From an uncultured delta proteobacterium (lineage in GTDB: Bacteria > Myxococcota_A > Polyangia > Polyangiales > Polyangiaceae), in assembly GCA_963850305.1 (NCBI GenBank), contig CAWKKR010000006.1:160001-224000 (forward strand): a stretch of DNA of 64,000 nucleotides. Reading direction: 5' to 3'. How positions within the stretch are numbered: the stretch's first letter is position 1; every line of letters starts with the position of its first letter. Shown in pieces: positions 17,933 through 59,259 of this stretch. Below the pieces are notes generated by a model. That model did not search any database. It was not told the origin of the DNA and saw only the letters and a list, made by a program, of their open reading frames with translations. The translations under genes and the position numbers were made by a program.

Positions 17933-17946
17933 TGCGCTTCTAGGAC

Positions 17947-18272
17947 GGGGGTCTTGACCCCCGCGGCTCGCTTCGCGACCGCTCCCCCGCCGTTTTCCAA
18001 CGGGGGTCTTGACCCCCGCGGCTCGCTTCGCGACCGCTCCCCCGCCGCCTTCGGCGGGCTCGTGCTCGCAAGGGGGTCTTGACCCCCGCGGCTCGCTTCG
18101 CGACCGCTCCCCCGCCGCCTTCGGCGGGCTCGTGCTCGCAAGGGGGTCTTGACCCCCGCGGCTCGCTTCGCGACCGCTCCCCCGCCGCCTTCGGCGGGCT
18201 CGTGCTCGCAAGGGGGTCTTGACCCCCGCGGCTCGCTTCGCGACCGCTCCCCCGCCGCCTTCGGCGGGCTCG
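17947..18272. repeat. 70-bp tandem array of a three-hairpin REP/BIME-like unit
   Basis: Unit starts at 17947 (partial), 18002, 18072, 18142 and 18212; essentially identical; lies between convergent genes. Confidence 0.95.
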
Positions 18273-18335
18273 CTGCGCTCGCGTAGTTCCGCACCTCGTT
18301 GAATCGGGGGGGACGACGGTGGCGTCGATGCGGAA

Positions 18336-19862
18336 CTACTGGCACTGCGGGTTGTCGGCGCTGACGGGGGAGCCGGTGCGGACGGCGATGGCGCCGGGCG
18401 CCGCGTAGCCGGTCGGAGTGCGGAAGTTCGTGTTGCTCTTGAACACCGGCGGGGCCGAGGCTGAACCTGTCACGGTGTAAGACTCGAGCGAGGAGTCGTT
18501 GGCCACGCGCAGGAGAGACCGCGTGTACGGCTCGTAGAGCAGGGCGCCACCGCCGGAGGTCTTGCAGATCTGCCCGGCCGCGGGAGGCGGGCTCCCGGAG
18601 GTCGGCACACCCCAGATGACCTGGTCGAGGAGCGACGTCGCGTAAGCGATGTTCTGGCAGTAGTCGAAGGCCGCCGCCGAGATGCGTGTGCTGCCCATCA
18701 CGAATGGGAGCTGAGCAGTGGTGGAAGCGTGGCTCTGATTGGGGTTGAATTCCTGGACGGAGCCCATCGTCGTCGCTGCCGGATTAGAGCATGCGGTCGC
18801 GGTCGTCGTTGCCGAGCCGTCGAGCGATGGCAGCACGACGATGTCGGCGTCGTTGCCGTCGTCCGCGGCGAAACCGGGTGAGCCCCCGGTCGGGTTCACC
18901 TGGCCCACCGCGACCGGCGCCGAAGTGTCGACCGTTGCCCCGCTGCCCCCGGCGGTCAAATCCACACTCACGCGCAACAGATCGATGTTGCACAGCGTGA
19001 TGCTCGGGTCGGACCTCGTTCCAGCGACGCAGCTCGTCCCGGTCTCCTCCAGCACCACCGTCACCGATCCGCCCTTCGACGAAGGGTGGGCGATCACCCC
19101 GAGCCGCACGCTGCTGTCGAGAACGGCATTGGTCCCCGCATCCAGAGGCACGTCCGCAAACTTCGTCACCTTCGCCGCGTTCGCGGTGTCGAGGATCGTG
19201 ACCGGACGCGTCCCCTGTATGGAAGTCGCCGAGCCCGAGACGTACGCGATGCCTCCGTTCAGCAACACGACGTTGCTCGACGGCACGGGCACGGTGACGC
19301 CGGCTCCGACGTCCCGCCAGTCCCCGGATTCGACGTCGAGCGCGCGGACCTGAAGCGTGGCCGTTGCCGCGGTCGGGCTCGCGGTCTCGAAGAAGTACCA
19401 GTTGTCCGAATTGGGGTCGTTCAGGATCGCGACGACGTTGCCGACGGTCTTCTTCGACACCTCGGCGCCCGTGGCCGGGTTGAGCACCCAGATGACCGAA
19501 GTCGCGGGCGTCTTCGTCGATTGGTAAGATACGATCGCGCCTCCGGGCCCGCCCGGATGGAACACGTCCGACTCGACGACGGCGCCGCCCGCTCCGCCGC
19601 CGCCGCCCGTACCGCCGGCGCCGCCAGACGCACCTCCGCCTGCACCGCCCGCGCCGCTGTCGTATGCGCCGCCCGAGCCTGCATCGAGAGTCGCTCCGGC
19701 CCCGCCGCCGTTACCCCCCGTGGCAGCGCCGCCGGAGCCCTGCGCGCCGCCCGCGCCGACGCCGCCGCCGTCGTTCTGCGGTTTCACGTCGTCGAACTTG
19801 TTGATGAGTGAGCAACCTCCGAGGAGGAGCAGCAGGGCGCCGGTTGCGCTCGTTTTTTTCAT
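18336..19862 (-). CDS. Lipoprotein, probable beta-propeller
   Basis: Lipobox LGGC, long Gly linker, beta-rich mature region. Confidence 0.8.
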   Translation of the reverse strand: MKKTSATGALLLLLGGCSLINKFDDVKPQNDGGGVGAGGAQGSGGAATGGNGGGAGATLDAGSGGAYDSGAGGAGGGASGGAGGTGGGGGAGGAVVESDVFHPGGPGGAIVSYQSTKTPATSVIWVLNPATGAEVSKKTVGNVVAILNDPNSDNWYFFETASPTAATATLQVRALDVESGDWRDVGAGVTVPVPSSNVVLLNGGIAYVSGSATSIQGTRPVTILDTANAAKVTKFADVPLDAGTNAVLDSSVRLGVIAHPSSKGGSVTVVLEETGTSCVAGTRSDPSITLCNIDLLRVSVDLTAGGSGATVDTSAPVAVGQVNPTGGSPGFAADDGNDADIVVLPSLDGSATTTATACSNPAATTMGSVQEFNPNQSHASTTAQLPFVMGSTRISAAAFDYCQNIAYATSLLDQVIWGVPTSGSPPPAAGQICKTSGGGALLYEPYTRSLLRVANDSSLESYTVTGSASAPPVFKSNTNFRTPTGYAAPGAIAVRTGSPVSADNPQCQ

Positions 19863-42641: not shown

Positions 42642-43496
42642 TCAGTTCGGGTACGGATGCGCGGCCCATCCGGACTGCTGGGAGTAGAGCGTGTAGGTCG
42701 TGAGAACCGCGTCGTCGTACGTGGTGTTGTACACGGTGCAGCTCTTCGTGCTGCCGTAGGAGTTGTAGTCGCCGATTGCCATCAGCGTGTACTCGTCCTC
42801 CGTGCACCCGGAGAACTTCTGCTTCTCCTGCTTCCGGTTGTCGGATATCCCGTACACGCCGACGTCGATGTTGATCGCGGGGTTGTAGGTGGACGTCGCC
42901 CACTCCGGGGAGGTCGAAGCCGTCGTGAGGTTCGGGTGCCCGTTCGAGAGCAGCCCTTCCTTGTTTGCGCCGAGGCATGCGGGAACGATCTGCATGAGGC
43001 CGTAACAATAGGACTCGGCCTGTGTCCAGCCGGCGGGCGTTCCACAAGGAAGATTCGGGCACGCGACCGCATCCACGGCGAACCGCGACTCGGTGTGGAT
43101 GATCGCCTTGAAGATCATCGCGTCAGGCTCCCCGTACTTCTTGGTCGAGGCGAGGATGTCGCAGTCGAACGCGTCGCTGCCGTCGGGCGGTGTGTCGCCC
43201 GTGCGCAGCGGGTCGGTCCCGCACGAGCCCGCGTCCTCCGCGCCCGCACCGCCCGAGCCCGTCGCTGCGCCGCCGCTGCCCTTGCCGCCCGAGCCGCTGG
43301 ACGCGCTCCCGCCGGCGGCCTTGCCGCCCGAGCCCATCGATGCGCTCCCGCCGGTCCCGGCTCCGGCACCGCCAGTGGCGGCGTCCGCGTTCGCGTCGTG
43401 GGTCGCGTGTCCGCCGCCACCGCACGCGATGGAGAGAGACGCGCAGGCGGCAGCGAGCCGCGCGCCGCGCACCAGGAACGACTTTCCCGAGCCCAT
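42642..43496 (-). CDS. Lipoprotein with lysozyme-like/SLT transglycosylase domain
   Basis: SIAC lipobox; AIIHTESRF, GLMQI, NIDVG, YNS. Confidence 0.8.
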   Translation of the reverse strand: MGSGKSFLVRGARLAAACASLSIACGGGGHATHDANADAATGGAGAGTGGSASMGSGGKAAGGSASSGSGGKGSGGAATGSGGAGAEDAGSCGTDPLRTGDTPPDGSDAFDCDILASTKKYGEPDAMIFKAIIHTESRFAVDAVACPNLPCGTPAGWTQAESYCYGLMQIVPACLGANKEGLLSNGHPNLTTASTSPEWATSTYNPAINIDVGVYGISDNRKQEKQKFSGCTEDEYTLMAIGDYNSYGSTKSCTVYNTTYDDAVLTTYTLYSQQSGWAAHPYPN

Positions 43497-43605
43497 GCCG
43501 TAGAGCGTCGTTCGATCCGGCCCGGCGATGCAACTCCGAGTTGTTTTCCCTCGTGGAATCGACGGCGTCGAAGCGCATCAGGTCCAGATCCGCCGAAATT
43601 GCCCC

Positions 43606-44214
43606 GTGAGCGGCTCGAGGCTCCCTGTGAGGGGCGCTTCTCCGGCCGTGAGCGGTCGATCACCCCGCAAACGAAGCCGTTCCTTCGTCGTGAGCGGCGG
43701 ATCACCCCACGCGTGAAGCGGTTCCTTCGTCGTAAGCGACGCTTCACCCCGCGTGAGCGGCGCATTGCTCGTCGTGAGCGGTCGATCACCCCGCGTGAGC
43801 GGCGCATTGCTCGTCGTGAGCGGTCGATCACCCCGCGTGAGCGGCGCATTGCTCGTCGTGAGCGGTCGATCACCCCGCGTGAGCGGCGCATTGCTCGTCG
43901 TGAGCGGTCGATCACCCCACGCGCGAAGCCGTTCCTTCATCGTGAGCGACGCTTCACCCCGCGTGAGCGGCGCGTCGCTCGTCGTGAGCGGCGGATCACC
44001 CCGCGAAGGAAGCGGTTCGTGCGACGTGAGCGACGGTTCACCCCGCGAGCGAAGCGGCTCGTACGACGTGAGCGGCGCTTCACCCCGCGTGAGCGGCGCA
44101 TTGCTCGTCGTGAGCGGCGCTTCACCCCGCGAGCGAAGCGGCTCGTGCGACGTGAGCGGCGCTTCACTCCACGCGCGAAGCGGTTCGTGCGACGTGAGCG
44201 GCGGTTCGCTATCC
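43606..44214. repeat. Array of ~29 21-bp units with a 42-bp higher-order period
   Basis: Alternating GTGAGCGGTCGATCACCCCGC and GTGAGCGGCGCATTGCTCGTC variants, no indels. Confidence 0.95.
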
Positions 44215-44299
44215 GAGATGTCCGTCGTCCACCGCGATCATTCTCGATGGCGCCGCCGATCCGAACCTCCCTTACGGTCCGGACGCCCCTCGTCAGCCC

Positions 44300-44649
44300 C
44301 ACTCTCGATCGGTGACCGGTCGAGCGCGTCTCCGGCGGGCGATGTCGGGGCCGGTTGCGGGCGCGGGAATCGGTTCCGGGGGCGGAGCCGGGCGGAGCGG
44401 GAGCGGGACCGCCGGAGGCGGTTCTCCCGTCCCCCCCGCTGCGCCTGCGCGCCTGCATCTCGCCACGAGGCCCGCAGCCTGGCCCGGCGGCGGCAACCGA
44501 CTCTCGCCGCGCCCGTCACTCCGGTGCGTCCCCCCAAATCTGTCAGCGCTGCGAATTTGTGCGCGTTTCCGCTCCCCATCCCGAACCCGTCTCTTCTTCC
44601 GGCTCCGCTCCCGCGCCCGTCCCCGCAACCGGCCCGACTTCCAATCGAG
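44300..44649. repeat. Dispersed hairpin element, copy A (empty, MITE-like)
   Basis: Matches 55295-55415 and 56311-56536; nested inverted blocks pair its two arms. Confidence 0.85.
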
Positions 44650-44669
44650 GCTGTCGCCAGCCCCGGCGG

Positions 44670-46098
44670 CTACCCGAGCTTTCGCAGCGTGAGCGCGGCG
44701 CGTCGCGCCGTTGCTCTTCGGTCGAGCTTGCCGGCCGGCGTCGTCTCGAATGCGTTGATCAGCGCGACGAGCCGCGGTCGCCGGTGCTGCGCGAGATGCT
44801 CGCGCACGAAGCGAAGGAGGTCTCCGTCCGCAGGAGCTCCGCTTTCACCGGGGACGAGCGCGACGGCCACGAGCTCGCCCCACGTGTCGTCGGGGACGCC
44901 GAAGATGCACGCGGCGTCGACTCCGGGGCAGCGCTCGAGAATGGCTTCGACCTCCGCGGGATACACGTTCTCGCCGCCCGTGACGATCAGGTCCGAGCGG
45001 CGGCCGAGGACATGCAAGTGCCCGACTTCGTCGAGGCGTCCGAGATCGTCGGTGTGAAACCAACCGTCGTCATCGAGCACCGAGCCGACGCCCGCCGGCA
45101 CGAGGGCGCTGAGCAAGGTCGGACCACGGACCTGAATGGCGCCTTCGACGATTCGCACCTCCGTGCCGAACATCGGAGCGCCTGCGCCGCGCTCGCCGCG
45201 GTTCACGGTTCCCGCCGGCTGCGTCGTGACCTGCGAGCACGCTTCGGTGAGGCCGTATGTCGTGAGCACGGGGAGCCCACGCTCCGCGGCGCGCTCGAGG
45301 AGGGACGGGCGCGCCGCTGCCCCGCCAAGCAGGACGGCACGGAGAAAGGGAGGCGGCGACCATCCCGGCTCGGCGAGCAGCCACTCGAGCTGCGTCGGAA
45401 CGAGCGAGACGAGCGTGGTGCGCGTCGCTTCGATGGACGCGATCAGGCTCGTCGCGTCGAGCCGGCGCCCCTCGGCGACCGCGTCCGGCACCACGACGGT
45501 TTTCCGCGCGAGCAGACAGCGCGTGAGAATGGACAGCCCGCCCACGTGCGCGATGGGCAAGCCGAGGAGCCAGCGATCGTCGTCGCGGAAGCCGAGATTC
45601 GCTTCGCTCGCGCGCGCCGAAGCGACAAACGCGCGCCGGCTGAGGGCGATACCCTTGGGGCTTCCGGTCGTGCCGGACGTGAAGAGCACGGCGAGCCAGC
45701 GCTCGGGATCCATCGCGCTGCTCGGGACCGGTGCTGTGGCGTTCGGTGACCACCGCGTCCGCCGCGGCTTCCGTTGCGGTCGCTTCATCGACGTAGAGCG
45801 ACGGCTGAACGACCTCGGCCGTCGCGCGGCGTTCGGTCTCGGTGAGCCGCGGATGGACGAGTGCCTGGGGTTGCCCGAGCTCCATCAGCGCATAGACGAG
45901 CTCGAGCGCCGGCAAGCGACTCGTCCCCGCGAGGGCAACCGGGCGCGCGTCATGCCCATCCACGCCTCGCTCTCGAAGCCACGCGATCCGGCGAGCCACG
46001 CTGGCCCCGAGCTCTGCGAACGTGATCTGCCGCTCACCGACGATCAGCGCGATCTGGTCTGGCGCGTCGCGCGCGGCGTCGAGGACGGAGAGCGTCAT
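44670..46098 (-). pseudogene. menE: O-succinylbenzoate-CoA ligase, frameshifted as sequenced
   Basis: FTSGTTGSPKG, YGLTE, TDDLG, GGENVYP; the N-terminal ~115 aa lie in another frame (shift ~45710-45790). Confidence 0.85.
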
Positions 46099-47168
46099 GG
46101 GTGGGGCAACGGGGCGAGTCCCAGTCCGGGACGTGAGGGCGCGATGATTCTGGCCCCGTTCATCATCGGGAGTTCGACCTCGGGCCAGGCCGCAAGTCCC
46201 GCGTGTCGCGCGAGACCGCTCGCGCGGGTCCGTGACGCCACGGCGAACGCGAGATGCGCGGACGCCGCCAGCGCGACGGGGCCGTCGAAGAGATGCGAGA
46301 CGGTGACGTCGATGCCGCGCTCTCGCGCGTCCAGGGCCAGGCGCAGGCACGTGGAGAGTCCGAGGAACATGGGCTTGAGCACGAGCGCGACGCAGTGAAG
46401 TTCGCTGGCGCGGGCCATGAACTCGGCGGCATGGTCGCGCAGCGACTCGTCGAGGGCAATCGTGATGGGCGGGCTCGCGAACGTCCCGAGCGCCTCCGGC
46501 GGCACCGGCTCCTCGATGAACTCGGGCGCGAGCGGCACGAGTCTCGAGAGCTCCGCCTCCGCGGTTCGCGGCTCGAGGCTGCCGTTCGCGTCGAGGCGCA
46601 GCGCAGCGTCGCCGATGACATTGCGAACGCGGCCGAGCACGTCGAGCTGCGCGCCGAGCAACGGACCCTCGACCTTGACCTTGAGGGTGCGAAACCCCTG
46701 GTCAAGCCCTTCGCGCGCGCGCTGGACGACGCTCTCGTCCTTCGCACTGCCGACGTACGCCGACAGCGACACGGGCGCGCCCGCGAGCGACGCGCCGGGA
46801 TCGAGCAGCGAGCAGACCGGCGCACTCAGCCGCTGACCGAGCAGATCGAACCAGGCCGTCTCCGCGGCGAACCGCGCCGCGCAAGGCACCCCAAACAAAC
46901 GATCCGCGAGGTCCCGCAGCGTTTCTTCGTTCGATGAGCCGGGCTCGGGGAGGGAGGACCAGTCCAGAGTCGAGAGCGCGCGGGCGCATTGCTCGAACGT
47001 CTCCCGAGAATAACCGGGGAGGGGAGAAGCTTCGCCCTGTCCGATGTGTCCATCCGGGGTGACGATTTGCAAGAGCAGTCCGCGCCGCTCGGTGGTGTCG
47101 CGAGCGCCCGCACGGGCGCCCGGCGTCGGTCCGGAGTATTCGAAGACGTGGATGCGGCTGAGACGCAC
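46095..47168 (-). CDS. menC: O-succinylbenzoate synthase (enolase superfamily)
   Basis: GEASPLPGYSRE, KVKV, RLDANG, IEEP, ALDES, VLKP; start GTG 47168 or TTG 47213. Confidence 0.88.
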   Translation of the reverse strand: MRLSRIHVFEYSGPTPGARAGARDTTERRGLLLQIVTPDGHIGQGEASPLPGYSRETFEQCARALSTLDWSSLPEPGSSNEETLRDLADRLFGVPCAARFAAETAWFDLLGQRLSAPVCSLLDPGASLAGAPVSLSAYVGSAKDESVVQRAREGLDQGFRTLKVKVEGPLLGAQLDVLGRVRNVIGDAALRLDANGSLEPRTAEAELSRLVPLAPEFIEEPVPPEALGTFASPPITIALDESLRDHAAEFMARASELHCVALVLKPMFLGLSTCLRLALDARERGIDVTVSHLFDGPVALAASAHLAFAVASRTRASGLARHAGLAAWPEVELPMMNGARIIAPSRPGLGLAPLPHP

Positions 47169-47352
47169 TGAGACACCGATGTCGGCGGACCAGGTGGGCA
47201 GGCCATCAGGCAATCATGTCGCGAGGTTGGCCCTCGATATCAGATTGCCAGAGACCACATGGTTAGTCGATAGTACGTGTGGAGCAGAAGGGGCATGATG
47301 CGAACGGCGGCTGACCTTTCCCCACCCGGCGAGGAGAACTGCGATGAGAATT

Positions 47353-48991
47353 GGGTGCAGTTCCCGATCTGCTGACGAAAAACAAAGCGAGATCGATCGG
47401 TTACGACGTGTAGGTTGAAAGAAGGGGCTCATTCGCGGCAGATATCCGGTTGCGAAACAAGAACACCAACCGGAAGGAGCCCCATGGCGACGACTATCGA
47501 GCGCGCCGGACGAGATGTCCAGAGCGCGATCGAGCGCGTTCGTAGATGCGCGGAATCGAAGGACACGACGACACTTGCTGCGGTCGAGCGAGAGCTTTGG
47601 ACGGCGCTGCTTCACCTCGGGCGTGCGGTTATGGCCCTGTTTCTCGTGCGATACGCTGCCCGTCCGCGACCCTTGACCTACGAGCACGACGGCGGGCGAT
47701 TCGCGCTCGACACGGACACGCGGCGTCGGAGCGAGATTGGCACGCGGTTCGGCAAGGTCGCGTTCGTACGAGCCGTCGGGCGCCCGATCGGCGGTCGTCG
47801 TCGTACTGACCTTCCCATCGATCGCGAGCTCGGCGTGTGCTCTGGCTTCAGCCTCGGGACGGTGACGGCGGTCGTACAGCTCTGCGCGCTGATGGCGTTC
47901 GGGACGGCGCGTCGCCTGTTCGCTGAGTTTCACGAGTGGGCACCGAGCTCGCGTTCGACGCTGCGCATGGTCGACGCTGTCGGCGCCGAAGCTCGCGGCT
48001 TTCTCGACGCGGACGCTGCGCCCGATGACGACGGAGAAGTCCTCGTGATCCAGGTCGACGGTCGCGGCGCACCGATGATCTCCGCGACGGAGCACGCGCG
48101 ACGCTGTCAGCGGCGACGGAAGACGAAGGGAACGAAACGACACGGTCGCCGTCTGCGTCGACGCGAACATCCGAGGCCGCGCCGCAAGAAGGGTGACAAG
48201 AGCAAGAACGCCAAAGTTGCTTTCGTCGGCGTGATCTACACTCTCCGGGCGACGCGCCACGGATGGGAGGGACCCATCAACAAGCGCCTCATCGCGACCT
48301 TCGAAAGCCACGAGGCGCTCTTTCGCTGGCTCGCCGTACACGCCGAGCGTCGCGGTTACGGTCGCAAGCGCTGCTTCTTTCTCGCCGACGGCTCCGATCA
48401 CATCTGGAGAAACCAGCAGATCTATTTCCCGAAGGCTGTGGCGTGCATCGACTGGTACCACGTCGCCGAAAAGCTCTGGGAGGCTGGAGGTTGTCTCCAT
48501 CCGGAGGGCAGCGCGCCACTTCGGCAGTGGGTCACCGAGCAACTGGGCAAGCTGCGACGTGGCAAGGTCGCCGACGTGCTCGAAGACATGGCCACGGCGC
48601 ACAACGCGATCTCGAAGACCGGCCCCGGGAACAAGGGCCGTCGCAAGCGACTGCTCGCCATCCTCGAGTACCTCACGGCGCACGAGCAACGGATGCCGTA
48701 CGCGGCGCTGCGTCGCGACGACCTCGACATCGGCACCGGTGCGGTCGAGGGCGCCGTGCGCAACCTCGTCGGCCTCCGCCTCGATGGACCCGGCATGCGA
48801 TGGGGACGCGACCGCGCCGAGATGATCCTCCACCTCCGCTGCATCGTCCTCAACGAGCAGTGGGGTGACTTCTGTCGCCTCCTGGAACGCCGCACGCTCA
48901 AGCTTGCAGCGACGCCAATCCCTGCACGAACGCACGACGCGAAACCTCAGCAATCACGCGAGGCCGCGTGACGCAAAATGGGATCGCACCC
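47353..48991 (+). mobile_element. ISKra4/ISLre2-type insertion sequence with 9-bp target site duplication
   Basis: Imperfect IRs GGGTGCAGTTCCC and GGGATCGCACCC; ATGAGAATT at 47344-47352 and 48992-49000. Confidence 0.9.
47484..48971 (+). CDS. ISKra4-family DDE transposase
   Basis: QVDG, LADGSDHIW, IDWYHVAEKLW, IGTGAVEGA..RL..GMRW. Confidence 0.9.
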   Translation: MATTIERAGRDVQSAIERVRRCAESKDTTTLAAVERELWTALLHLGRAVMALFLVRYAARPRPLTYEHDGGRFALDTDTRRRSEIGTRFGKVAFVRAVGRPIGGRRRTDLPIDRELGVCSGFSLGTVTAVVQLCALMAFGTARRLFAEFHEWAPSSRSTLRMVDAVGAEARGFLDADAAPDDDGEVLVIQVDGRGAPMISATEHARRCQRRRKTKGTKRHGRRLRRREHPRPRRKKGDKSKNAKVAFVGVIYTLRATRHGWEGPINKRLIATFESHEALFRWLAVHAERRGYGRKRCFFLADGSDHIWRNQQIYFPKAVACIDWYHVAEKLWEAGGCLHPEGSAPLRQWVTEQLGKLRRGKVADVLEDMATAHNAISKTGPGNKGRRKRLLAILEYLTAHEQRMPYAALRRDDLDIGTGAVEGAVRNLVGLRLDGPGMRWGRDRAEMILHLRCIVLNEQWGDFCRLLERRTLKLAATPIPARTHDAKPQQSREAA

Positions 48992-49554
48992 ATGAGAATT
49001 CGAATCATATGGGGGGGCGCTCTCGTGTTCGGCGCGGCGATCGCGTGCACCACGAAGAACGCCACGGACGCTACCCGCTCCCCGACGGTCGAGTCGGAAG
49101 CGAGCGTCGCGGACGGCTCTGCCGGGCAGTGCACGCAGGTCGCGGGGGGCGCTTCTGTCTGCAAGGGACTCTGGTTCCCAGTACGGGCGCGCCAGGCGAC
49201 GACGCAGAAGACTTTAGCTTCCAGGTTGGGGACCCTGTCGTCGTGGACGTGGTGCCAGCGGGATGCCACGACGGTGCCTGCACGGAGACGCCGCGGAAGT
49301 CTTGCAGCGTCTCGGGTTCAGCGGGGAGCTACGTCGTCACACCGGACTTCTGCCTGCGGGATATCACCGCAGAGCGCCAGGCCACGCTGGGCTGTGATGA
49401 GACATGCGACGGCATCACGGCCGAGTGTCGGGCGGACGCGACGCTCGTCGCCGGGCAAAATACCGTCACCATGGGCGGCGCGACGTTCACCTTCACCGTG
49501 CCCGGGACGATGCCGCAGGATTCGGCATGCGCCGGGGCAGGCGACGCTTACTGA
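48992..49554 (+). pseudogene. Cys-rich lipoprotein cut from its RBS by the IS and frameshifted at a G6 run
   Basis: MRIRIIWGG..AAIAC lipobox; continues as RFCLQG... after adding one G at 49144-49149. Confidence 0.65.
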
Positions 49555-49558
49555 ATCG

Positions 49559-50470
49559 TCACCGACGTCCGATGGCGATTCCGATCGCGAAGAGTACGGC
49601 GTGGACGAACAGCAGTCGTGCCGTGCCGACGAGCGAGGCGTTGAGAGCGCGGCCGGAGTCCGTCATCACGCGGCGGGTGAGACGGACACCGATGGGCGCC
49701 GACGCGAGCGGCAAGAGCACCCAGGGCGACGCGGCGCGCGTGGCTGCGAGGAACACGGGAACGAGATACGCGGCCGCGACGAGCCCGGCGTATTCGATGA
49801 GCCCGGCGGTTCTGCCGAACCTCACGGGGAGCGTTCGCTTGCCGGCCTTCACGTCCGTCTCGCGATCGCGGACGTTGTTGACGACGAGGATCGCAGTGGC
49901 GAGCGCGCCCACCGGGATCGCGGCGAACCACGCGAGCGCGGGCACCGAGCCGAGTTGCACGAACGCCGTGCCGGCGACCGCGACGAAGCCGAAGAACAGC
50001 AGGACGAACACGTCGCCGAGACCGTGGTACCCGAGCGGATACGGTCCGCCGGTGTATGCGATTGCCGCCGCGATGGACGAAAGGCCAATCGCGATGACGA
50101 CGGGTCCCGCGACGATCGTCAGATAGATGCCGACTGCGAACGCCGCGCCGAACGCGACGGCCATTCCACAACGAAGCGCGCGTGGCGACAGGAGCCCTGC
50201 CTGGGCCGCGCGCACGGGCCCGAGGCGTTCTTCCGTGTCGGCGCCCTTCTCGAAGTCGAAGACGTCGTTCGCGAGGTTCGAGCCAATCTGCAGGAACATC
50301 GCGCCGGCAAGCGCCGCAAGGGCAGGACCCGCGCGGAACCCGTTCACGGCGTACGCGCACGCCGAGCCGACGGCGACCGGCGACACCGCTGCCGTCAACG
50401 TCGGTGGCCGGCACGCGAGCACCCAGGCACGTGCAGAGCCGGGCTTCGGCGAAGACACGGCCTCGCTCAC
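49559..50470 (-). CDS. menA: 1,4-dihydroxy-2-naphthoate polyprenyltransferase
   Basis: [40 protein letters not shown]...GKRTL. Confidence 0.95.
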
Positions 50471-51219
50471 CGGCCGTCTCCCGGGTGCTGCGCGATGCAC
50501 CGAGACACGATGTCGGGCCGTTCGAGCACGACGTTGTGTCCGGCACCGGCGACGGATTCGACGCACGCATGGGCAAGATGTCGACTCATCTCCGCCGCGA
50601 GTGCGGAGAACTTCGCATCGCGCTCGCCGACGACCAGGGTGACCGGAATCGCGATCCGCGAGAGCACGTCCCAGTACGACGGCATGACGCCGAGCCCGGT
50701 GACGCGCAGAGACCGCGCGAGCTCGAGCGGATCGTGTGCAAGACGCTCCGCTCGCTGACGTTCGAGGACGTCGGGGGCGAGCGCGGACTGCGTTGCGAAG
50801 AGCGGCAGCGCTTGCCATTCGTCGACGAACGCCGCGACGCCGCGCTCTTCGAGCACACGACAGAGCCGTTCGTCGGCCTCGCGCCGTTCTGCGCGTTCGG
50901 TCTCCGTCCGAAGACCGGGTTGCGCGCCGACGAGGGTCGCGCTCGCGAAGAGCGTGGGATGACGGACGAGAAGCCCGAGCGCGACGCGGCCGCCGAGCGA
51001 GTACCCGGCGAGATGCCATCGCGGCGCTTCTGCGCGGAAGAGTGCCGCCAGACGATCCACCTCTTGCTCGAAGCTCGTGCTCTCGGGCGATTTATTGGGG
51101 GCGCCATGTCCGACGAGCGGCGGCGCGGAGACGACTCTGGCGCCGAGACGGCTCACCACGCCGTCGAAGCTGTGCGGGCTCCCGGTGAACCCATGCAAGA
51201 CAGCGACGGGCAGCGTCAC
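50467..51219 (-). CDS. menH: SHCHC synthase
   Basis: [28 protein letters not shown]; follows menD. Confidence 0.9.
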
Positions 51220-53021
51220 GGAAAAGCCTCGGATTCGAGCACGGGTCTCACCGCGGCATCGACGGCGCTCGCGACTCGCGCCGCTTGAGCCCGGGCTCCC
51301 TGCGGCGGCACGACGAGCTCCACAATCGTGCACGCGGGACGCGCCAGGGCTTTCGCGAGTGCATCCTCCAGCGACGCGACCGTCGTGGCGCGTGCGTACG
51401 CGAGGCCGAAGAGCGCGGCCACGCCGTCGAAATGACGTCCATGCGGCGTGGTCCAGAACCGAAATTCGGGCTCACCCGCATCGGCAAGGGGGAGCTGCTC
51501 GAAGATCCGACCCCCGTCATTGTTCAAGATCACGACGACGAACGGAACGTCGATCGGAGTGGCTGCCGCGAACCCGCCGAGGTCGTGCAGCGCGGAGACG
51601 TCGCCGAGCAACAGCACCGTGGGGCGTCCCGCCGCGCGCGCGCTGCCCGCCGCGCCGGCGACGAGGCCGTCGATGCCGCTGGCCCCGCGCTGAGAACAAA
51701 CTCCGAGGCGCGCCGAGGGATGCGCGCGACAGAAGCAGTCCACGTGGCGCACCGGCAAGCTGTTGCCCACGACGAACACGGACGCTTCGGGCAACGCCTC
51801 GACGACGGTGCGCGCCGCGGCTCCTTCGGAAAGCGCCGGCTCGGACTCCACCACGCGCGTCACGGCTTCCCATGCGGCTTCGTTCACCTGGGACAACACT
51901 CTGCTCCAGGTTCCAGCAGCCCGTGTCGAGCGCGACGGCGTCAGCGACGCCACGAGCCGTTCGAGCGTCGTACCGACGTCACCGTGGACGATCGAGCGCG
52001 CGCTACCGAGCGGATCGGGCCAGCCGTGCGTGGAGATCACGTGGCGGGCCACGTCGCGGTGTCCGCCGAGCCAGCGTTCCCACGCTCCGGACGTGGGAGG
52101 TTCTCCGAGCTGGAGCACGACGCGCGGGTGAAACCGCTCGCGAAACGTCGGCGAGCGGAGCAAGACGTCCAGGCCGTCCAGCACCAGTTCGCGCGACAAG
52201 GAAGCGCCGTCGAACCGAAGCTGGCTCGTCGCTTCCGCGTACACGGGATACCCGGTCGCGCGCGCAAGCGCTGCGACACGCTCGCTCCGCGCGGCTCCTC
52301 CGAACGGCGCGGGCCCACACACGATGATGCCGCGTTCCTCGCGAGCGCAATCCTGCAGCGCTGGCGCAAGAGCGGGGTCCGTCGGAACGCACAGCGGCGG
52401 CACCGCGCGAGTCGCGGGCTCGCGAAGCAACGCGTCCACTCGTCGCGCCAGATCGAGCTCGTCGGAGCTCATCGCCCTCGTCGGCTCGAGCGGCTTCCGG
52501 GCGCGGATGTTCAGATGAACGGGGCCCGGCGCGGCGCCCAGGGTCTCGAAGAGGCTCTGGATCGCGCGGCGCCGGAGCCCGACGAGCGCGATGTCCGCGC
52601 CGTCGGGCATGCCGAGGTCCGCAAAACGACGGACGTACTCACCGTACAGCCGCGTCTGATCGATCGTCTGCGGCGCGCCGCAGTCCTGGAGCTCGAAGGG
52701 GCGGTCCGCGGTGAGCACGAGGAGCGGCGAGCGAGAAAGCGAGGCTTCCACGACCGCGGGGAAGTAGTTCGCCGCCGCCGATCCCGACGTGCACAGGACC
52801 GCGGCGGGACGGCCCGTGATGCGCGCGATGCCGAGCGCGTAGAAGGCCGCGGCGCGTTCGTCGACGATGGATTCGCACCGGATCCGCCGGCACGAGAGGA
52901 ACGCGGACGTGAACGGGGTGGAGCGCGATCCGGGGCTCACGACCACTTCGGTCAATCCCGCGTCGGCGAGGCTCTCCACGAGCAGGCGCGCCCACTCGGT
53001 CAGCAGGTTCGCGGCGCTCAT
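51216..53021 (-). CDS. menD: SEPHCHC synthase
   Basis: SPGSRSTP, DERAAAF, CTSGSA, TADRP, RGASGIDG, GD...HD, NNDGGRIF. Confidence 0.96.
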   Translation of the reverse strand: MSAANLLTEWARLLVESLADAGLTEVVVSPGSRSTPFTSAFLSCRRIRCESIVDERAAAFYALGIARITGRPAAVLCTSGSAAANYFPAVVEASLSRSPLLVLTADRPFELQDCGAPQTIDQTRLYGEYVRRFADLGMPDGADIALVGLRRRAIQSLFETLGAAPGPVHLNIRARKPLEPTRAMSSDELDLARRVDALLREPATRAVPPLCVPTDPALAPALQDCAREERGIIVCGPAPFGGAARSERVAALARATGYPVYAEATSQLRFDGASLSRELVLDGLDVLLRSPTFRERFHPRVVLQLGEPPTSGAWERWLGGHRDVARHVISTHGWPDPLGSARSIVHGDVGTTLERLVASLTPSRSTRAAGTWSRVLSQVNEAAWEAVTRVVESEPALSEGAAARTVVEALPEASVFVVGNSLPVRHVDCFCRAHPSARLGVCSQRGASGIDGLVAGAAGSARAAGRPTVLLLGDVSALHDLGGFAAATPIDVPFVVVILNNDGGRIFEQLPLADAGEPEFRFWTTPHGRHFDGVAALFGLAYARATTVASLEDALAKALARPACTIVELVVPPQGARAQAARVASAVDAAVRPVLESEAFP

Positions 53022-54434
53022 TGCACGACGTGGAGGGCCGCGCAGAGCGTCTCGAGCTTCAGTCGCGTCTCGGCGTACTCGCTCGCGGGATCGGAGTCGC
53101 GCACGATGCCGCTGCCGGCGTAGAGGTACGCACGATTGTCGACGATGGCCCCCGAGCGCAGTCCGACGGCAAACTCACCGTCCCCCTTTGCGTCGAACCA
53201 GCCGATCGGCGACGCGTACCAGCCGCGTTCGGCAGGCTCTTCCGCGCGGATGAACTGGACCGCGCCGGACGTCGGTACGCCGCCCACGGCGGGGGTCGGG
53301 TGCAGTCGCTCGACCAGCTCGAGCACGTGCACGGGGCGATGGAGCCTGCCGCGGATCGGCGTCGTCAGGTGGACGAGGTGCGGCAGCACGCGAACCTCGG
53401 GCGAACGCGGATGTTCCAGCGATTCGCACACGGGCGAGAGCGTCTCGACGATCTGTCGAACGACGAGCTCGTGCTCTTCCCGCTCCTTCGGGCTGTTCAT
53501 CATTTCCGCGGCGCTGCTCGCGTCGCCGACGCGGCTGGTTCCGGCGAGCGCCTCGGTGGCAAGTTCGGGACCCTTCCGGCGAATGAGTCGCTCCGGAGTC
53601 GCGCCGAGGAATGTGCTTCGACCGAACCTGAACGCGAAGCGTGTGCAGTGCGTCGCGGAGCGCCCGAGCTCCGTGACGACGTCGAGCAGAATCGATCGGG
53701 CCGTCGAACGAGAGCGTGGTCCGCCGGGCAATGACGACTTTCTCGAACTCGCGCCGGGAAATCCGCGTCACGATCTTTTCCACGAGGTTCGTCCACTCGG
53801 GGAGGGTCACCTCGACGCGGCTCGCGACCGTCCAGGGCGCAGGCCGACGGCGCACCACCGGGCCGTCGTGCGACGCCGCGCGCAGGGTCGCGAACGTCCT
53901 CTCCGTCGCTGCCACGAGCTCGCGGACCGCGGAGTCCGTCACGACGTCTTCACGACGCGCTGCGACGCTCAGCCAAGCGTGGTCGCCCTGACGCGCATAC
54001 CGGAACCTGGGTAAGACGAAGCGCGCATCGCCGAAATCCGTCCAGGGCTCGGACGACGACGCACCGGGCTGAAAAGAGAACCCCCCGAGAAATCGGACCG
54101 ATGGGGCAGGGGTATCGCCGAGGTCGACCGTCTGCAGGGAGCGAAAAACGGCGTCGGCATCCGCGCGGATCTGCGCGACCCTCGCGGACCCGTGCCCCCG
54201 CAGGTTCGCGACGGCTCCGACGGCGGAAAACGCCGTCCCCTCGATGGGCTCGAAGAGCAGGGCATCCTCCGCGGGCGCCGCGGCAAGCAATGCTTCCAGC
54301 GGGGCGAGGGGCGCGGGCACCGAGACCACCGCGACTGCGGCCGGGTCTCGCACGGAGGCGAGCGCGTCGCGGAGCGCATCCCCGAGTTGCAGGGGCCTCC
54401 GCGAGGGTTCGAGCGAAACAGCCGAGGTCGTCAC
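53018..54434 (-). pseudogene. menF: Isochorismate synthase, frameshifted as sequenced
   Basis: EKVVIAR in the N-terminal frame; GATPERL, ALAGT, HPTPAVGG, AGSGIV in the C-terminal frame; one extra base near 53690. Confidence 0.88.
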
Positions 54435-55168
54435 GAGGGGTGCCGCGGTTGTGCGACGTAAAGGTTGGCGACGCCGAACGTGAGCGCCACGTTTTCCAGT
54501 ACGGTGAGCCCCGCCTCGTCCATCGTCCGGGCAAAATCTTTCGACGGGGGAAACGCGGCGATGGAGCGCTGCAGGTACCGGTACTCGCGCGAGCCGGACA
54601 CGAGCCCGCCCAGGAACGGGACGACCGAGTGCACGTGAAAGCGCGCAAGCGGCCCCAGGAAGCCGCCGCGCGGTTCCGACAGTTCCAGGATGACGACGCG
54701 CCCCGACGGACGCGTCACCCGGGCCATCTCGCGCAGGGCCTTCGGTCGATCGGGCACGTTCCTGATGCCGAACGCGATCGACGTCGCGTCGAACGAGCGG
54801 TCGTCGAACGGAAGCGCCTCGGCAAGGCCGGTCCGGAGCGTCACCCGTTCGGCGAGACCGCTCCGCGCGATCTTGCCGCGACCCACGTCGAGCATCTTGA
54901 CCGACGGGTCCACGCCTTCGACGAGGACGGTCGGGTGCGTTTCGGCGATGAGGATCGCGAGGTCGGCAGTCCCCGTGGCGAGATCGAGCGCCCGCCCCGA
55001 CGCGGGAAGCCCCATGGCCGCGACGGTCTTCCGCCGCCACGCCTGGTCTATGCCGAGTGACAGGAGCCGATTCAGGAGGTCGTAGCGATCGGCGATCCGA
55101 TCGAACATTTGCCCCGACCCGTCTCGGGTCACCGGGCTCTGGCTCGATAGGACGGGCTCGTGGGGCAT
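54431..55168 (-). CDS. menG: Demethylmenaquinone methyltransferase (UbiE/MenG)
   Basis: MFDRIA.RYDLLN..LS.G....WR, LDLATGTADLA, FGIRNV. Confidence 0.93.
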   Translation of the reverse strand: MPHEPVLSSQSPVTRDGSGQMFDRIADRYDLLNRLLSLGIDQAWRRKTVAAMGLPASGRALDLATGTADLAILIAETHPTVLVEGVDPSVKMLDVGRGKIARSGLAERVTLRTGLAEALPFDDRSFDATSIAFGIRNVPDRPKALREMARVTRPSGRVVILELSEPRGGFLGPLARFHVHSVVPFLGGLVSGSREYRYLQRSIAAFPPSKDFARTMDEAGLTVLENVALTFGVANLYVAQPRHPS

Positions 55169-55498
55169 CGCGCGGTCTCTTCGGCCGGTCCCGGACATCT
55201 GCCGCCGAAAGTGCCGCTCACCGGGAACCGCGGTGAAGGCGCCTCCGCTTTTAGGAAGCAGCGACGCGGGCGTCAAGATCGGCCGATTGTCCGGCACTCT
55301 CGATCGGTGACCGCAGGAGCGAGCCTCCGGCTGGCAGAGCCGGCAACGGTTTCGGCGCCGGGATCGGGTCCGGGGAGGGGTTCGGGCAAGCGGGAGCGGG
55401 ACCGCCGGAGGCGGTGCCGGTCGAGCGAGCCTTCGCGGGCCCGTATTAGTAGCTTTGGGGCGTCGGGCGTCGGCCCCGGGAGTCGGCAGATGCGGGCT

Positions 55499-55780
55499 TC
55501 AGTCCGGGCCTTCGGCGAGCGCGGCGCGTGGGCCGAGCTCGGCATCGGTCGCGGACACGAGCGCGAAGAAGACGTCGTCGTGGAGCGCCTTCCACGGCAC
55601 GTGCCGTCGCTCTTCCGAGCGCTGGGTGATGCTGCGGAAGAGGGCGAGGATCGTGTAGGCGATGCGGCGCAAGATCGCGACGACGAGCGCGGCACGCGGA
55701 TTCGACTCGATCCACGGGTGGTCGTCCTCGGCGAAGGCGGTGTCGAGGATCTGATGCGCCGTCTCGACGCCCCAGTGCCT
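55499..55780 (-). pseudogene. C-terminal fragment of an ISAs1-like transposase
   Basis: Manual translation RHWGVETAHQILDTAFAEDD...LRRIAYTILA; no start codon. Confidence 0.7.
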
Positions 55781-55793
55781 GGCCTGCTCGGCG

Positions 55794-56144
55794 TCAGCGC
55801 ACGAGCCGGCTCAGCACGTTCTTCAGCCGCACCCCGAGCGCGAGCACCTCCGCGACCTCTGCCGGGGCGCACGCTCCGAGCGCGCCGGCAATCTCGACCG
55901 CCGCGCACGCCTCGCAGCACTCGGCGAGCGCGATCGCGTAGGCGCGGCTCTTGTCCGCGAGGCTCTGCCGCGCGGCACCTTCGGCGGCATTGAGCGCCGC
56001 GCTCGCGGCGCTCTTGCGCGCCTGCGCTCGGAGCTGCGAGTCCCGGATGCGCGTGCCCGCGACGCGCTTCACGAGCTCGAGCGCGAGCTGGTACGCGATG
56101 AGACGATGGTGGGGAAGCGATGCGGAGGGATCGGGGTGGCTCAT
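55794..56144 (-). CDS. Four helix bundle protein (23S rRNA IVS protein / Avd-like)
   Basis: 116 aa: RLIAYQLA...QARKSAASAALNAAEGAAR...AYAIALAECCE. Confidence 0.88.
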   Translation of the reverse strand: MSHPDPSASLPHHRLIAYQLALELVKRVAGTRIRDSQLRAQARKSAASAALNAAEGAARQSLADKSRAYAIALAECCEACAAVEIAGALGACAPAEVAEVLALGVRLKNVLSRLVR

Positions 56145-56592
56145 GCCCTCCCAGGCGCAGGACCCGTGACAGCGAAGCGTCGTGCACGGCCGCTCCTTGC
56201 CGCCGCTGGCGCGGGGCGTGCGCCACCAGGCAGGAGCCACCCCGAGCCCGACACCGCTCCCAGAACCGAGGCCCCACACCGAGACCGACACCGGCACCGA
56301 TCCCCGATCCCCCGTCCCCCCGCTGCGCAGGCGCGGCTGCATCTCGCCACGAGGCCCGTCAGGCTGGCCCAGCGGCGAGAACCTTCTCAGGCCGCGCCCG
56401 TCCCTCCGGTGCGTCCCACCAAATCTTGTCGGGCGCTGCGAATTTGTGCGCGTTCCCGCTCCACATCCCAAAACCCTATCTTCTTCCGGCTCCGCTCCCG
56501 CGCCCCTCACCTCAACCGGCCCGACTTCCAATCAAGCCTGGTTTGTCGTGCGGCAGAGGGCGCCGCACGGGTGGGTATGGCATAGTCGGCCC

Positions 56593-57120
56593 GTGTTCGC
56601 GTCCCTTCGCCGATTCCGTCGGCTGGTGCCGCTCGCCGCGCTGCTCGTGGCCTGCGTGGCGGTCGCGCTGCCGACCCGAGCAGCGCCGCGCGAGGTCGCC
56701 GCGACCCCGGACGAATCGTTCAATGAATACGTGCCGGGCGCCGCGCTGCTCGAAGGACGATTGCTCGCGCCCTGCTGCTGGACCCAGACGCTCGACATCC
56801 ACGGCTCGCCGATCGCAAACGAACTACGCCGCGAGATCCGCCATCGCCTGAAGGCCGGGGAAACCCCCGAGGCCATCCAGGCCGACCTCGTGCGACGTTA
56901 CACGACGAGGATCCTCGCCGTACCGCCCGACCATCCTCTGTCACGGATTGGAACAATCCTGTCGGTAGCGTTGCTCGGAGCCGGCGTGTTTGCCGGAAGC
57001 CGCGTTGCTCGATGGAAGAAGCGAGCCTCGAAACCGCCTTCCGTTCCACCGAATGCCGGCGCATCGTCCAACGACGAGTGGGACGCGCGTCTGGACGCCG
57101 AGCTCGAAGACGAGGACTGA
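56593..57120 (+). CDS. ccmH: Cytochrome c biogenesis protein CcmH/NrfF family
   Basis: LLAPCCWTQTL, ELRREI...G.TPE.I...V.RY...IL..P, then TM helix. Confidence 0.8.
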   Translation: MFASLRRFRRLVPLAALLVACVAVALPTRAAPREVAATPDESFNEYVPGAALLEGRLLAPCCWTQTLDIHGSPIANELRREIRHRLKAGETPEAIQADLVRRYTTRILAVPPDHPLSRIGTILSVALLGAGVFAGSRVARWKKRASKPPSVPPNAGASSNDEWDARLDAELEDED

Positions 57121-57123
57121 GAT

Positions 57124-59259
57124 TCAGCGCGCCGCGGGCTTTCGCCGCGAACCGGTCGACGACACCTGGCGGCTCGTCTTCGGGCGGCCTTCGGGGTTTT
57201 TATTGGGTACCCTGGAAACCTTCGGCCTCGCGGGCTCGGCTTTCCCGCGCGCGCGAGGCTCAGGGGGCTCTTTCGCGAAGAGCTTTCGCGCGGCGTCGGC
57301 GGCGCGTGCGGCCATCTCGGTCTGTCCGCGCATCTCCATCAAGAATCGGCTCGGGATCTGCGGACGCTCGGTGCCCCATTTCATCCGCGCCTTGCAGTAA
57401 GAGAGCGTCAGCCGATCCTTCGCTCGAGTGACGCCGACGTAACAGAGTCGCCGTTCCTCGTCGATGCCGGTGCCGCCAGCGTCCTCGATCGCACGCCGGT
57501 GCGGCATGAGCCCCTCCTCGACGCCGACCATGTACACGTGAGCGAACTCGAGTCCCTTGGCGCCGTGGAGCGTCATCAGCGTGATGGCTGCCGGGCGCTC
57601 GTCGTCTTTCTTCAGGTCGTCACGGCCGACGAGACTGGTCTCGTCCAGGAACTCGCGAAGCGACGGCTTTTCCGTTCGCGACTGGTATGTAGCGATCGTG
57701 TTGACGAGTTCTCCGAGTGATTCCCACCGTGCTTCGGCGTCGCCGGGGTTCTTGTACGCGCGCGCGAGTTCCCCGCGGTAATCGATGTCACGCAAGAGCT
57801 CCATCACGACGTCCACCCAGTTGGATTCCGACGCGATGCGCGCCCGGTATCGATCGATGAGCCCGCGGAACGCTTCGACGCGCTCGCCCGCCTGGTGAGG
57901 GACGTCACCGTCCGTGATCGCGCCGGGCAGTTCGGCCCAGAGTGACGTTCCCGCGGCCACGGCGCGCTTGAGGAGGGCCTCCACGACGCCGTCGCTGATC
58001 CCGCGCCGCGGCGTGTTGATGATCCGGAGCAGCGACACCTCGTCCGAAGGGTTTGCGAGCACCTTGAGGTACGCGAGAACGTCGCGAATCTCCTTCCGGT
58101 CGTAGAATGACTGGCCGCCGACGAGCACGTACGGCACTCGCTCGCGACGGAGTTCAACTTCGAATGCCCGAGGCTGCTCGTTCGTCCGAAACAGGATCGC
58201 GATCTCGCGTAGCATCCACCGATCGGGTTTCTCCGGCACCACGTTCGACGCGATCTCCCTGACGATCTCCGTCGCCTCCGTGCTCTCGCCGTCGAATTTG
58301 AGGAACCGCGGAGGATCGCCGCCGCGCCGCGCCGCGCGAAGTACCTTCCCATGTCGCTGCTTGTTGTGACCGATGAGCGTGTTGGCGAGCGCGAGAATGC
58401 TCTCACGACACCGGTAGTTGTCCTCCAAGCGCACCACCGTCGCGCCTTTCCAGTCTCTCGCGAAGTTGAGGATATGGGTGACCTCCGCGCCGCGCCACCC
58501 GTAGATCGACTGATCGTCGTCGCCCACCACGCAGAGATTCTGATGGTCTTCCGCGAGCGCTCGAACGATCCGATATTGGAGCGCGTTGGTGTCCTGGTAC
58601 TCGTCGATCAGAACGTGGTCGAAGCGGCGTGATTCGGCGCGTCGCACATCCTCGAATCTGCTGAAGAGCTCCTCCGTGCACAGGAGGAGATCGTCGAAGT
58701 CGACGGCGCCGGCCGCGCGGAGGGAAGCCTGGTATCGCACGAACGCCATCGCCGCGAGTTGCTCGCGATCGCTCTCCGCAATCTGGTCCGCCTGGTCCGG
58801 ACGCACGCCCCGCGTCTTCCAAGAGCCGATGATCGACAGAAGCTCTCCGGGTCGCAGCTTCTCGTTGCCGACGCGCAGATCCCTGAGGGTCGACCGGGCG
58901 ATGCTCTCCTGTTCGTTCTGATCGTAAATGGCGAATTCGGCTGGGTAACCGAGACGCTGGATGTTTCTGCGAAGGATGCGAACGCAGAGCGAGTGGAATG
59001 TCGATATCTCGGGCTGGCTTTCCTTGGTCCGGCGCTTACCGAGAAGAGAAACTGCGCGCTCCCGCATTTCTCGCGCGGCCTTGTTCGTGAACGTGACCGC
59101 CAAGATCCGGTTTCCGCGCGTGCCGGCGCGAATCAATTCCGCGATGCGATAAGTGATGACGCGCGTTTTTCCGGAACCCGCCCCCGCAAGGACGAGGAGC
59201 GGGCCTCGACGAGTCATGACTGCACGCCGCTGCTCGGGGTTCAGATCCGGGATCGACAT
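57124..59259 (-). CDS. UvrD/Rep/PcrA superfamily 1 DNA helicase
   Basis: AGAGSGKT, TFTNKAA, DEYQDTN, GDDDQSIYGWRGA, HGAKGLEF, EERRLCYVGVTRA. Confidence 0.95.
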   Translation of the reverse strand: MSIPDLNPEQRRAVMTRRGPLLVLAGAGSGKTRVITYRIAELIRAGTRGNRILAVTFTNKAAREMRERAVSLLGKRRTKESQPEISTFHSLCVRILRRNIQRLGYPAEFAIYDQNEQESIARSTLRDLRVGNEKLRPGELLSIIGSWKTRGVRPDQADQIAESDREQLAAMAFVRYQASLRAAGAVDFDDLLLCTEELFSRFEDVRRAESRRFDHVLIDEYQDTNALQYRIVRALAEDHQNLCVVGDDDQSIYGWRGAEVTHILNFARDWKGATVVRLEDNYRCRESILALANTLIGHNKQRHGKVLRAARRGGDPPRFLKFDGESTEATEIVREIASNVVPEKPDRWMLREIAILFRTNEQPRAFEVELRRERVPYVLVGGQSFYDRKEIRDVLAYLKVLANPSDEVSLLRIINTPRRGISDGVVEALLKRAVAAGTSLWAELPGAITDGDVPHQAGERVEAFRGLIDRYRARIASESNWVDVVMELLRDIDYRGELARAYKNPGDAEARWESLGELVNTIATYQSRTEKPSLREFLDETSLVGRDDLKKDDERPAAITLMTLHGAKGLEFAHVYMVGVEEGLMPHRRAIEDAGGTGIDEERRLCYVGVTRAKDRLTLSYCKARMKWGTERPQIPSRFLMEMRGQTEMAARAADAARKLFAKEPPEPRARGKAEPARPKVSRVPNKNPEGRPKTSRQVSSTGSRRKPAAR

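Follow-up and report, generated by a model that had tools for sequence, protein, structure and literature searches.

We analysed a 64-kb window of DNA (the whole stretch under study; assembly GCA_963850305.1, contig CAWKKR010000006.1, positions 160,001-224,000) from a member of the Polyangiaceae. The window contains two copies of one element, here called copy A (44300-44653) and copy B (55295-56540). Both lie on the minus strand in intergenic DNA, beside menE-like and ubiE/menG-like genes. Copy B carries an intact gene for a four-helix-bundle (4HB) protein and the 3' end of a transposase gene of the ISAs1 family; copy A has lost the 4HB gene, its leader and the transposase. As a preliminary description of the window had noted, the two copies share a 19-bp start (44300/55295), an identical 27-mer (44396/55389) and a right-hand block of about 230 bp, which is 87% identical. 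Copy A consists of a left end (231 bp) joined to a right end (123 bp); in copy B, the corresponding positions are 1-233 and 1126-1246. It is almost certain that both copies are internally deleted derivatives of an insertion sequence (IS) of the ISAs1 family. Copy A resembles a miniature inverted-repeat transposable element (MITE), and copy B is a non-autonomous derivative in which a putative passenger cassette and ~92 codons from the end of the transposase gene survive.

The boundaries of the two copies were defined by imperfect terminal inverted repeats of 13 bp and by target-site duplications of 10 bp. In copy A, the right repeat (IRR; 44300-44312, plus strand) matches the left repeat (IRL; 44641-44653, minus strand) at 10 of 13 positions, and the same IRR motif terminates intact elements of other genomes. 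In copy B, IRR (55295-55307, plus strand) matches IRL (56528-56540, minus strand) at 9 of 13 positions. The preliminary description had placed the ends at 44649 and 56536 and had seen no clear target duplication. The true ends are 44653 and 56540, and duplications exist, all read on the plus strand: 44290-44299 and 44654-44663 agree at 9/10 positions around copy A, and 55285-55294 and 56541-56550, which have decayed, agree at 7/10 around copy B. The latter is the best match among the 14 left-end flanks compared. Among random 10-mers of the window's genome, the chance of such duplications is 1e-4 for copy A and 8e-3 for copy B.

The interior of copy B is read on the minus strand, from IRL to IRR. 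The left end (56311-56540; 87% identical to that of copy A) is followed by a G-rich run of hexamers (56240-56310), which was read directly; similar runs precede most 4HB genes of the same subfamily (subfamily A). Next come a leader, which is a conserved imperfect palindrome overlapping the 4HB start codon (56137-56245; defined in an alignment of 22 sequences), the 4HB gene itself (55794-56144) and the transposase remnant (55499-55777), which begins at an HWGVE motif. The left ends of both copies contain the conserved motif GCACAAATTCGCA (44550-44562 and 56437-56449, minus strand). It is also found in the left ends of A-type, B-type and HNH-type relatives; even in divergent lineages it has stayed ~90-100 bp from the left tip of the element. 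This motif is a candidate transposase site, host-factor site or promoter part.

The preliminary description had correctly recognised an ISAs1 fragment in copy B. The fragment is not an insert. The 99-amino-acid remnant scores 22 bits against NF033564 (E 6e-5), which is below the cut-off of that model. It is what is left of the element's own transposase, of which the first ~335 codons have been deleted. It matched 25 of 201 family genomes and is up to 79% identical to the transposases of relatives. A scan of public genome contigs gave 55 loci, mostly from Polyangiaceae or Polyangiales. In the intact relatives the order is left end, hexamer run, 4HB gene, a spacer of 130-180 bp, a transposase of 421-429 amino acids and right end. 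Elements that contain a 4HB gene measure 2.1-2.7 kb in total, and those that contain an HNH gene measure up to 3.7 kb. Copy B is colinear with the intact elements L079, L080, L083, L188 and L190. L079, L080, L082 and L083 are intact and colinear, have the same ends, encode 4HB proteins 56-83% identical to that of copy B and possess a full transposase. With the ISAs1 family models (NCBIfam NF033564; Pfam PF13808 and PF01609) as reference, all six A-type relatives (L079, L080, L082, L083, L188 and L190) passed the NF033564 cut-off (74-102 bits against 70). L068 and L061 also passed it, making eight of the eight full-length transposases examined. DGK, YDAG and WGVE motifs were found by pattern in the intact relatives, and the window keeps only WGVE. 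By analogy, these motifs, including the E of HWGVE, would have catalytic roles.

The relatives also indicate how the element would insert. Among 65 loci with enough flanking sequence, 35 have a terminal-repeat pair and a 9-10/10 duplication spanning the transposase. These 35 loci represent 26 distinct sites, and the 10-bp duplication is perfect at 24 of them; a control with shuffled loci (357 kb) gave no perfect duplication and one at 9/10. Because 10-bp duplications and terminal repeats are accompanied by a full transposase in the relatives, the element is an IS. Its DDE transposase would act on the element ends and insert the element with a 10-bp staggered cut. Deleted forms occur as well. 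One deletion (profile positions 47 to 225) is present at five sites of genome G126, each with a different perfect duplication, and a deletion from 98 to 269 recurs at several sites of genome G093. The recurrence of one deletion at separately duplicated sites shows that deleted forms moved in trans in the relatives. Deleted copies in general would move in this way while an intact copy exists.

Target duplications of the ISAs1 family range from 8 to 10 bp, and a typical member is a single open reading frame that fills an element of 1.2-1.5 kb. The element agrees with the family in that the transposase of the relatives scores above the NF033564 cut-off, in its DDE motifs, in short terminal repeats starting with CA and in the 10-bp duplication. 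It differs in being a divergent subgroup, whose scores lie close to the cut-off, in its length of 2.1-3.7 kb and in the cargo gene upstream of the transposase. It also has a terminal consensus of its own, which differs from that of a canonical ISAs1 element elsewhere in the window's genome. Because the intact relatives are longer than single-ORF ISAs1 elements and carry cargo, we class them as a passenger-carrying variant and not as typical members. Passenger-carrying IS, MITEs and mobile insertion cassettes have all been described before (PMC9330008, PMC3129680). The intact relatives are comparable to transporter IS (tIS), which likewise consist of an IS and a passenger gene. Copy B, L189 and L191 keep the passenger without a working transposase, as mobile insertion cassettes do. 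Copy A is, like a MITE, an end-to-end derivative devoid of open reading frames: it has IS ends and a duplication and has no transposase. However, its structure occurs in single copy in the window's genome and does not form a uniform amplified family there; uniform families of deleted copies are present in G126 and G093. Unlike in these known types, new occupants have entered the passenger slot of the present element: 4HB genes from three different subfamilies, or an HNH gene.

In the window's genome, a profile search (E<=0.01; some matches are weak) found 14 right-end and 24 left-end matches, including eight two-ended copies of 70-1919 bp. Every interior is different. The preliminary description had proposed a dispersed element with a full and an empty form; the element is indeed dispersed and both forms occur, but the copies do not fall into two forms only. 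The duplication scores of the eight two-ended copies are 9, 7, 8, 4, 9, 9, 2 and 4 of 10. Thus five have duplications of 7-9/10, the chance of a score of at least 7 being 0.008. Three loci deserve separate mention. The two-ended copy at G000:C8:378618-380536, which has a 9/10 duplication, encloses ~1.6 kb of unrelated DNA; this suggests cargo capture or a later insertion. The copy at G000:C8:1122061-1123113 is a sister of copy B in which a short palindromic REP-like insert interrupts the 4HB gene, and it lies itself within another repeated palindrome. At G000:C1:796653-796759, the leader palindrome occurs without a gene or IS ends. We also considered the canonical ISAs1 element at C1:734-735 kb as the activating element and rejected it: its ends differ and it is truncated at the 5' side.

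The preliminary description had suggested that copies A and B could be a structured RNA or DNA element with paired arms. In this explanation, the element would be independent of a transposase and its arms would be recognised by the 4HB protein, as in a 23S rRNA intervening sequence. The three nested self-pairing blocks reported for copy A are present in the sequence, and copy A folds modestly better than shuffled sequences (z -2.2, -2.8 and -3.0). However, the longest stem depends on three right-end substitutions (44345, 44351 and 44357, in the sub-terminal block 44344-44361, plus strand), which copy the opposite arm; of the 11 right ends in the genome, 1 has them. The stem is thus private to copy A. 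Template switching between imperfect inverted repeats is a described process (PMC7202029, PMC8604942), and the A-specific substitutions are likely to be template-switch homogenisation. The hairpin of copy A would then have arisen when two repeat-rich ends were joined and their pairing was improved by likely template switching.

Pairing of the left and right arms reached z<=-3 in only 2 of 12 elements (z -3.0 and -4.7), and copy B pairs no better than shuffles (z -0.4). A conserved arm-arm hairpin is therefore not supported. Complementary arms that bracket a 4HB gene were found at z<=-3 in 1 of 20 loci, and that locus is an IS derivative. In Rfam, the region 43000-58000 gave no family beyond a chance microRNA match and no rRNA. 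The association of 4HB genes with intervening sequences (PMC10053308) is in favour of a transposase-independent structured element, together with the folding of copy A and the arm complementarity of the two relatives. Against it stand the IS ends, the 10-bp duplications, the full ISAs1 transposase that lies between the same ends in relatives and the differing interior of every two-ended copy. Ends of an IS are, moreover, among the findings that the preliminary description had itself listed as refuting its proposal. We regard this explanation as highly improbable.

The 4HB gene announced in the preliminary description is real. The 116-amino-acid open reading frame scores 46.5 bits with PF05635 (cut-off 33.8) and 48.6 bits with TIGR02436 (above cut-off). 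A structure model of the protein has a pLDDT of 93 and TM scores of 0.86 to Xcc0516 (2gsc), 0.79 to 2rld and 0.63-0.71 to the Avd fold (0.63 for 4dwl). Against eight relatives, dN/dS of the copy B gene is 0.13-0.22; for the transposase, dN/dS is 0.12 (one pair only). PF05635 genes are known from rRNA intervening sequences, from the neighbourhoods of diversity-generating retroelements (DGRs) and from cas loci (PMC10053308, PMC3936711). Xcc0516 and BT_0352, which are open reading frames of 23S rRNA intervening sequences, belong to the same protein family (PF05635, TIGR02436) and have the same fold. Unlike such intervening sequences, the present element is intergenic and not in rRNA, most loci lack complementary bracketing arms and the 4HB gene has a palindromic 5' leader. 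The Avd protein of DGRs has a related 4HB fold, a homology also stated in PMC10053308; the sequence identity between Avd and the 4HB protein is ~12%. In contrast to DGRs, the partner gene here encodes a DDE transposase. No reverse transcriptase (RT) and no template or variable repeat was present within the elements inspected, and no RT search of the genome was made.

Which genes occupy the slot upstream of the transposase? Of the 55 contig-scan loci, 22 include the beginning of the transposase gene together with 290 bases or more before it. A 4HB gene, whole or in part, lies on the same strand upstream of the transposase in 16 of these 22 loci (9 of 14 source assemblies). Thus the arms are associated with 4HB genes elsewhere, as the preliminary description had anticipated. 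One further assembly has an HNH gene upstream, and four have neither. The IS-borne 4HB proteins belong to three subfamilies, mostly with 21-40% mutual identity, and the nearest relatives of each subfamily are free-standing 4HB genes and not the other two subfamilies. Placing all IS-borne 4HB proteins in one clade was rejected (p-AU 5e-67) in an analysis of 14 IS-borne and 23 other proteins chosen from the loci of this study. In the transposase tree, the cargo types are interleaved. When the close relatives of the subfamily A protein were taken as the starting point, a transposase lay downstream in 6 of 38 metagenome loci and only the IS ends were present in four more; most of these relatives are free-standing. 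The ends of this IS were not seen around solo 4HB genes in most of loci L126-L154.

These data bear on the role of the 4HB protein. It could be an accessory factor recruited by the IS, which binds the hexamer-rich ends or the leader and regulates or assists transposition, as Avd assists RT; in a variant, the cassette would supply a promoter for the downstream transposase. Several observations are consistent with this idea: three 4HB subfamilies have come to occupy the same slot on the same strand, purifying selection acts on the gene, the protein shares its fold with Avd, and the spacing of 130-180 bp between the 4HB and transposase genes fits an operon. Left-right arm pairing also shows a weak cognate preference (p 0.004 by permutation, without correction for kinship). 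Of the 41 4HB matches in G093, no fewer than 19 lie inside IS elements of three families (four ISAs1-type, nine IS4 and six IS5; the other 22 were not inspected). However, in the IS4 and IS5 elements of G093 the 4HB gene is tail-to-tail with the transposase, and convergent genes cannot share a transcript. Furthermore, HNH-carrying and cargo-free lineages exist. In genome G126, which gave 14 transposase matches, an HNH gene fills the slot, many duplications are perfect and the element contains no 4HB gene. Since this HNH-carrying lineage spreads well without a 4HB gene, 4HB is not needed for transposition. The location of most close 4HB-A relatives outside this IS also speaks against an accessory role. 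Therefore, we consider an accessory function, including the promoter variant, unlikely, and we favour, with reasonable confidence, the interpretation that 4HB is a hitchhiking passenger.

Related arrangements were observed at further loci. In L156 (4382-8063), L168 (1936-4704) and L072, the same IS lineage has in its slot a gene for an HNH protein of ~430 amino acids with a RuvA-C/UBA-like tail. An IS4-family element of 1.9 kb, found in L051 (588-2494) and L256-L262, likewise carries a 4HB gene together with the leader seen in copy B; it has nine copies in G093, two of which are inserted into the ISAs1-type element. A 1.3-kb IS5-family element (L127 1377-2692, L131, L136, L141, L146 and L151) carries a fourth kind of 4HB gene, which follows a short hexamer run and is tail-to-tail with the transposase. 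In L267, L268 and L144, a leader-DUF559 unit or a 4HB gene is immediately followed by an IS91/ISCR-like transposase, and in G126 IS91-like transposases adjoin both kinds of unit. Tail-to-tail pairs of different 4HB genes occur in L129, L134 and L139, where they lie between long inverted hexamer arrays, and in L192, L198, L201, L205 and L214. A group II intron end is located beside the 4HB cassette of L205 (820-893; Rfam RF00029, above gathering score), and visual inspection of an HNH-type element revealed another within its left end (L059, near 480-540).

Taken together, copies A and B are probably immobile remnants of a ~2.3-kb ISAs1-family IS, whose relatives carry 4HB genes most likely as passengers acquired several times. 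A unit of hexamer run, palindromic leader and 4HB gene, which would be widespread on its own in this bacterial family, would land in insertion sequences and then be amplified by hitchhiking. The following points weigh against this explanation. An intact cognate transposase was not found in the window's genome (94.8% complete), and the parent element was therefore reconstructed from relatives. Three of the eight two-ended copies have no duplication (2, 4 and 4 of 10). No empty insertion site was obtained: six DNA sequencing runs share 5-9% of words, and four DNA runs yielded only short pieces of related elements. In the relatives, 30 of the 65 loci lack a bounded pair, some because the left end is outside the stretch fetched. 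Support for the deep nodes of the transposase tree is weak. Finally, A-type pairs have dN/dS values of 0.06-0.36, which means purifying selection on the passenger, and in this IS its slot and strand are always the same; neutral hitchhiking alone would not require such constancy. Given the decayed duplications, the unique deletions and the lack of an intact copy, the copies in the window's genome would be fossils.

The preliminary description had also tied a hairpin to the 4HB gene. Such a covarying hairpin is present, formed not by the arms but by the leader (56137-56245), which the preliminary description does not mention and which has been deleted in copy A. The leader is ~110 nt long and lies directly 5' of the 4HB gene of copy B. 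A leader pattern gave 23 matches from 4HB-A loci, both IS-borne and free-standing. In 22 aligned sequences, 12 of the 30 pairs show double-sided changes, which amount to 69 cells; this level was reached in 0 of 500 shuffles, and slid controls gave 4-14 cells (kinship not corrected). The pattern preselected the inner columns in part, but two 5-nt spacers and the outer stem were free to vary. These spacers and the outer stem covary, and the second codon covaries with its upstream partner. Only ~5 G·U cells were counted against the 69 double changes, and a C·C mismatch is fixed in 22/22 sequences. With wobble pairs so rare, a DNA hairpin or homogenisation of the arms is indicated. The loop varies from ~10 to 80 nt, and the outer stem reaches ~30 bp before DUF559 genes. 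A covariance model of the leader gave matches in 41 of 121 family genomes. Among the 30 best matches, which were inspected, the leader is followed by a 4HB gene in 18, by a DUF559 gene in nine and by neither in three. The same leader precedes the IS4-borne 4HB gene. In five genomes searched with the exact pattern, 15 matches were found in two and none in the other three. Because the leader is common to two unrelated protein families, a 4HB-specific site is disfavoured. Rfam contained no leader family for six leader-bearing loci, giving chance matches and the one real group II intron in L205.

Two explanations of the leader were compared. The first is that it consists of two sigma-54-type promoter sites (GG-N10-GC) that face each other head to head; template switching would maintain the complementarity of the arms, which would have no structural role. 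On the antisense strand, the GG-N10-GC spacing is invariant (22/22), and it puts a sense start near the ATG. The almost purely Watson-Crick covariation is what arm homogenisation predicts (PMC8604942, PMC7202029). However, the sense site has GT in place of the near-invariant GG in 17/22 sequences, B-type leaders have a spacing of 9 or 11 nt instead of 10, and the fixed C·C mismatches survive in the stem. The variable loop and the long outer stem before DUF559 genes also do not fit. We consider this explanation possible but not probable.

The second explanation, which we propose tentatively and with some doubt, is that the leader is the recognition site of a micro-cassette system, namely a single-stranded DNA hairpin of the attC or REP kind in Polyangiaceae-type myxobacteria. 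By analogy, the leader resembles attC and REP sequences in its imperfect palindrome, Watson-Crick covariation, fixed mismatches, unpaired spacer, variable loop and small interchangeable open reading frames. Unlike in attC, no GTTRRRY-type core was seen, and the leader lies 5' of the open reading frame. In such a system, 4HB and DUF559 endonuclease-like genes might be inserted or exchanged into ISAs1, IS4 and IS5 elements (and next to IS91-like elements) and then amplified, a scheme that we hold with equal reserve. Neither cassette arrays nor a cognate recombinase was identified, and no systematic recombinase search was made.

Copies A and B flank a menaquinone biosynthesis cluster on the minus strand (44670-55297). 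The ubiE/menG-like and menE-like genes of this cluster were assigned by Pfam, and the menF-, menD-, menH-, menA- and menC-like genes by reading. An ISKra4-family transposase (47415-48971; 205.7 bits, at cut-off) lies inside the cluster, upstream of the menC-like and menE-like genes. We considered whether the two copies are the ends of a composite transposon around the cluster. This was rejected: each flank best matches its own other end (9/10 and 7/10), and no reciprocal duplication was found among 12 right and 14 left ends. Copies A and B were inserted independently on either side of the cluster. Several tandem repeats are also present in the window. A 42-bp array of ~16 units (43563-44243) stops just before copy A, downstream of the start of an SLT-domain gene; the open frames within it, which have a weak match to PF21300, seem to be artefacts of the repetition. 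A 70-bp array of 5-6 units, up to 96% identical, is located at 17921-18340, and a coding series of ~153-bp, RCC1-like repeats at 14513-16553.

As an element, the present one is ordinary in kind, being represented by decayed IS copies, and this subgroup of ISAs1 may already have been listed elsewhere, since our search did not extend to ISfinder or the main IS reviews. In the literature searched, there was no account of PF05635 genes as cargo of ISAs1 or other IS, nor of the leader. The value of the result lies in the link between 4HB (PF05635) genes and transposons. PF05635 genes are very common and multi-copy. Because at least 19 of the 41 4HB matches in G093 ride in IS elements of three families, hitchhiking explains much of the amplification there. 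The covarying leader common to 4HB and DUF559 genes provides a concrete cis-element for two large families of unknown function. If the micro-cassette explanation is true, it would be the first concrete route for the multi-copy spread of the so-called '23S rRNA IVP' genes.

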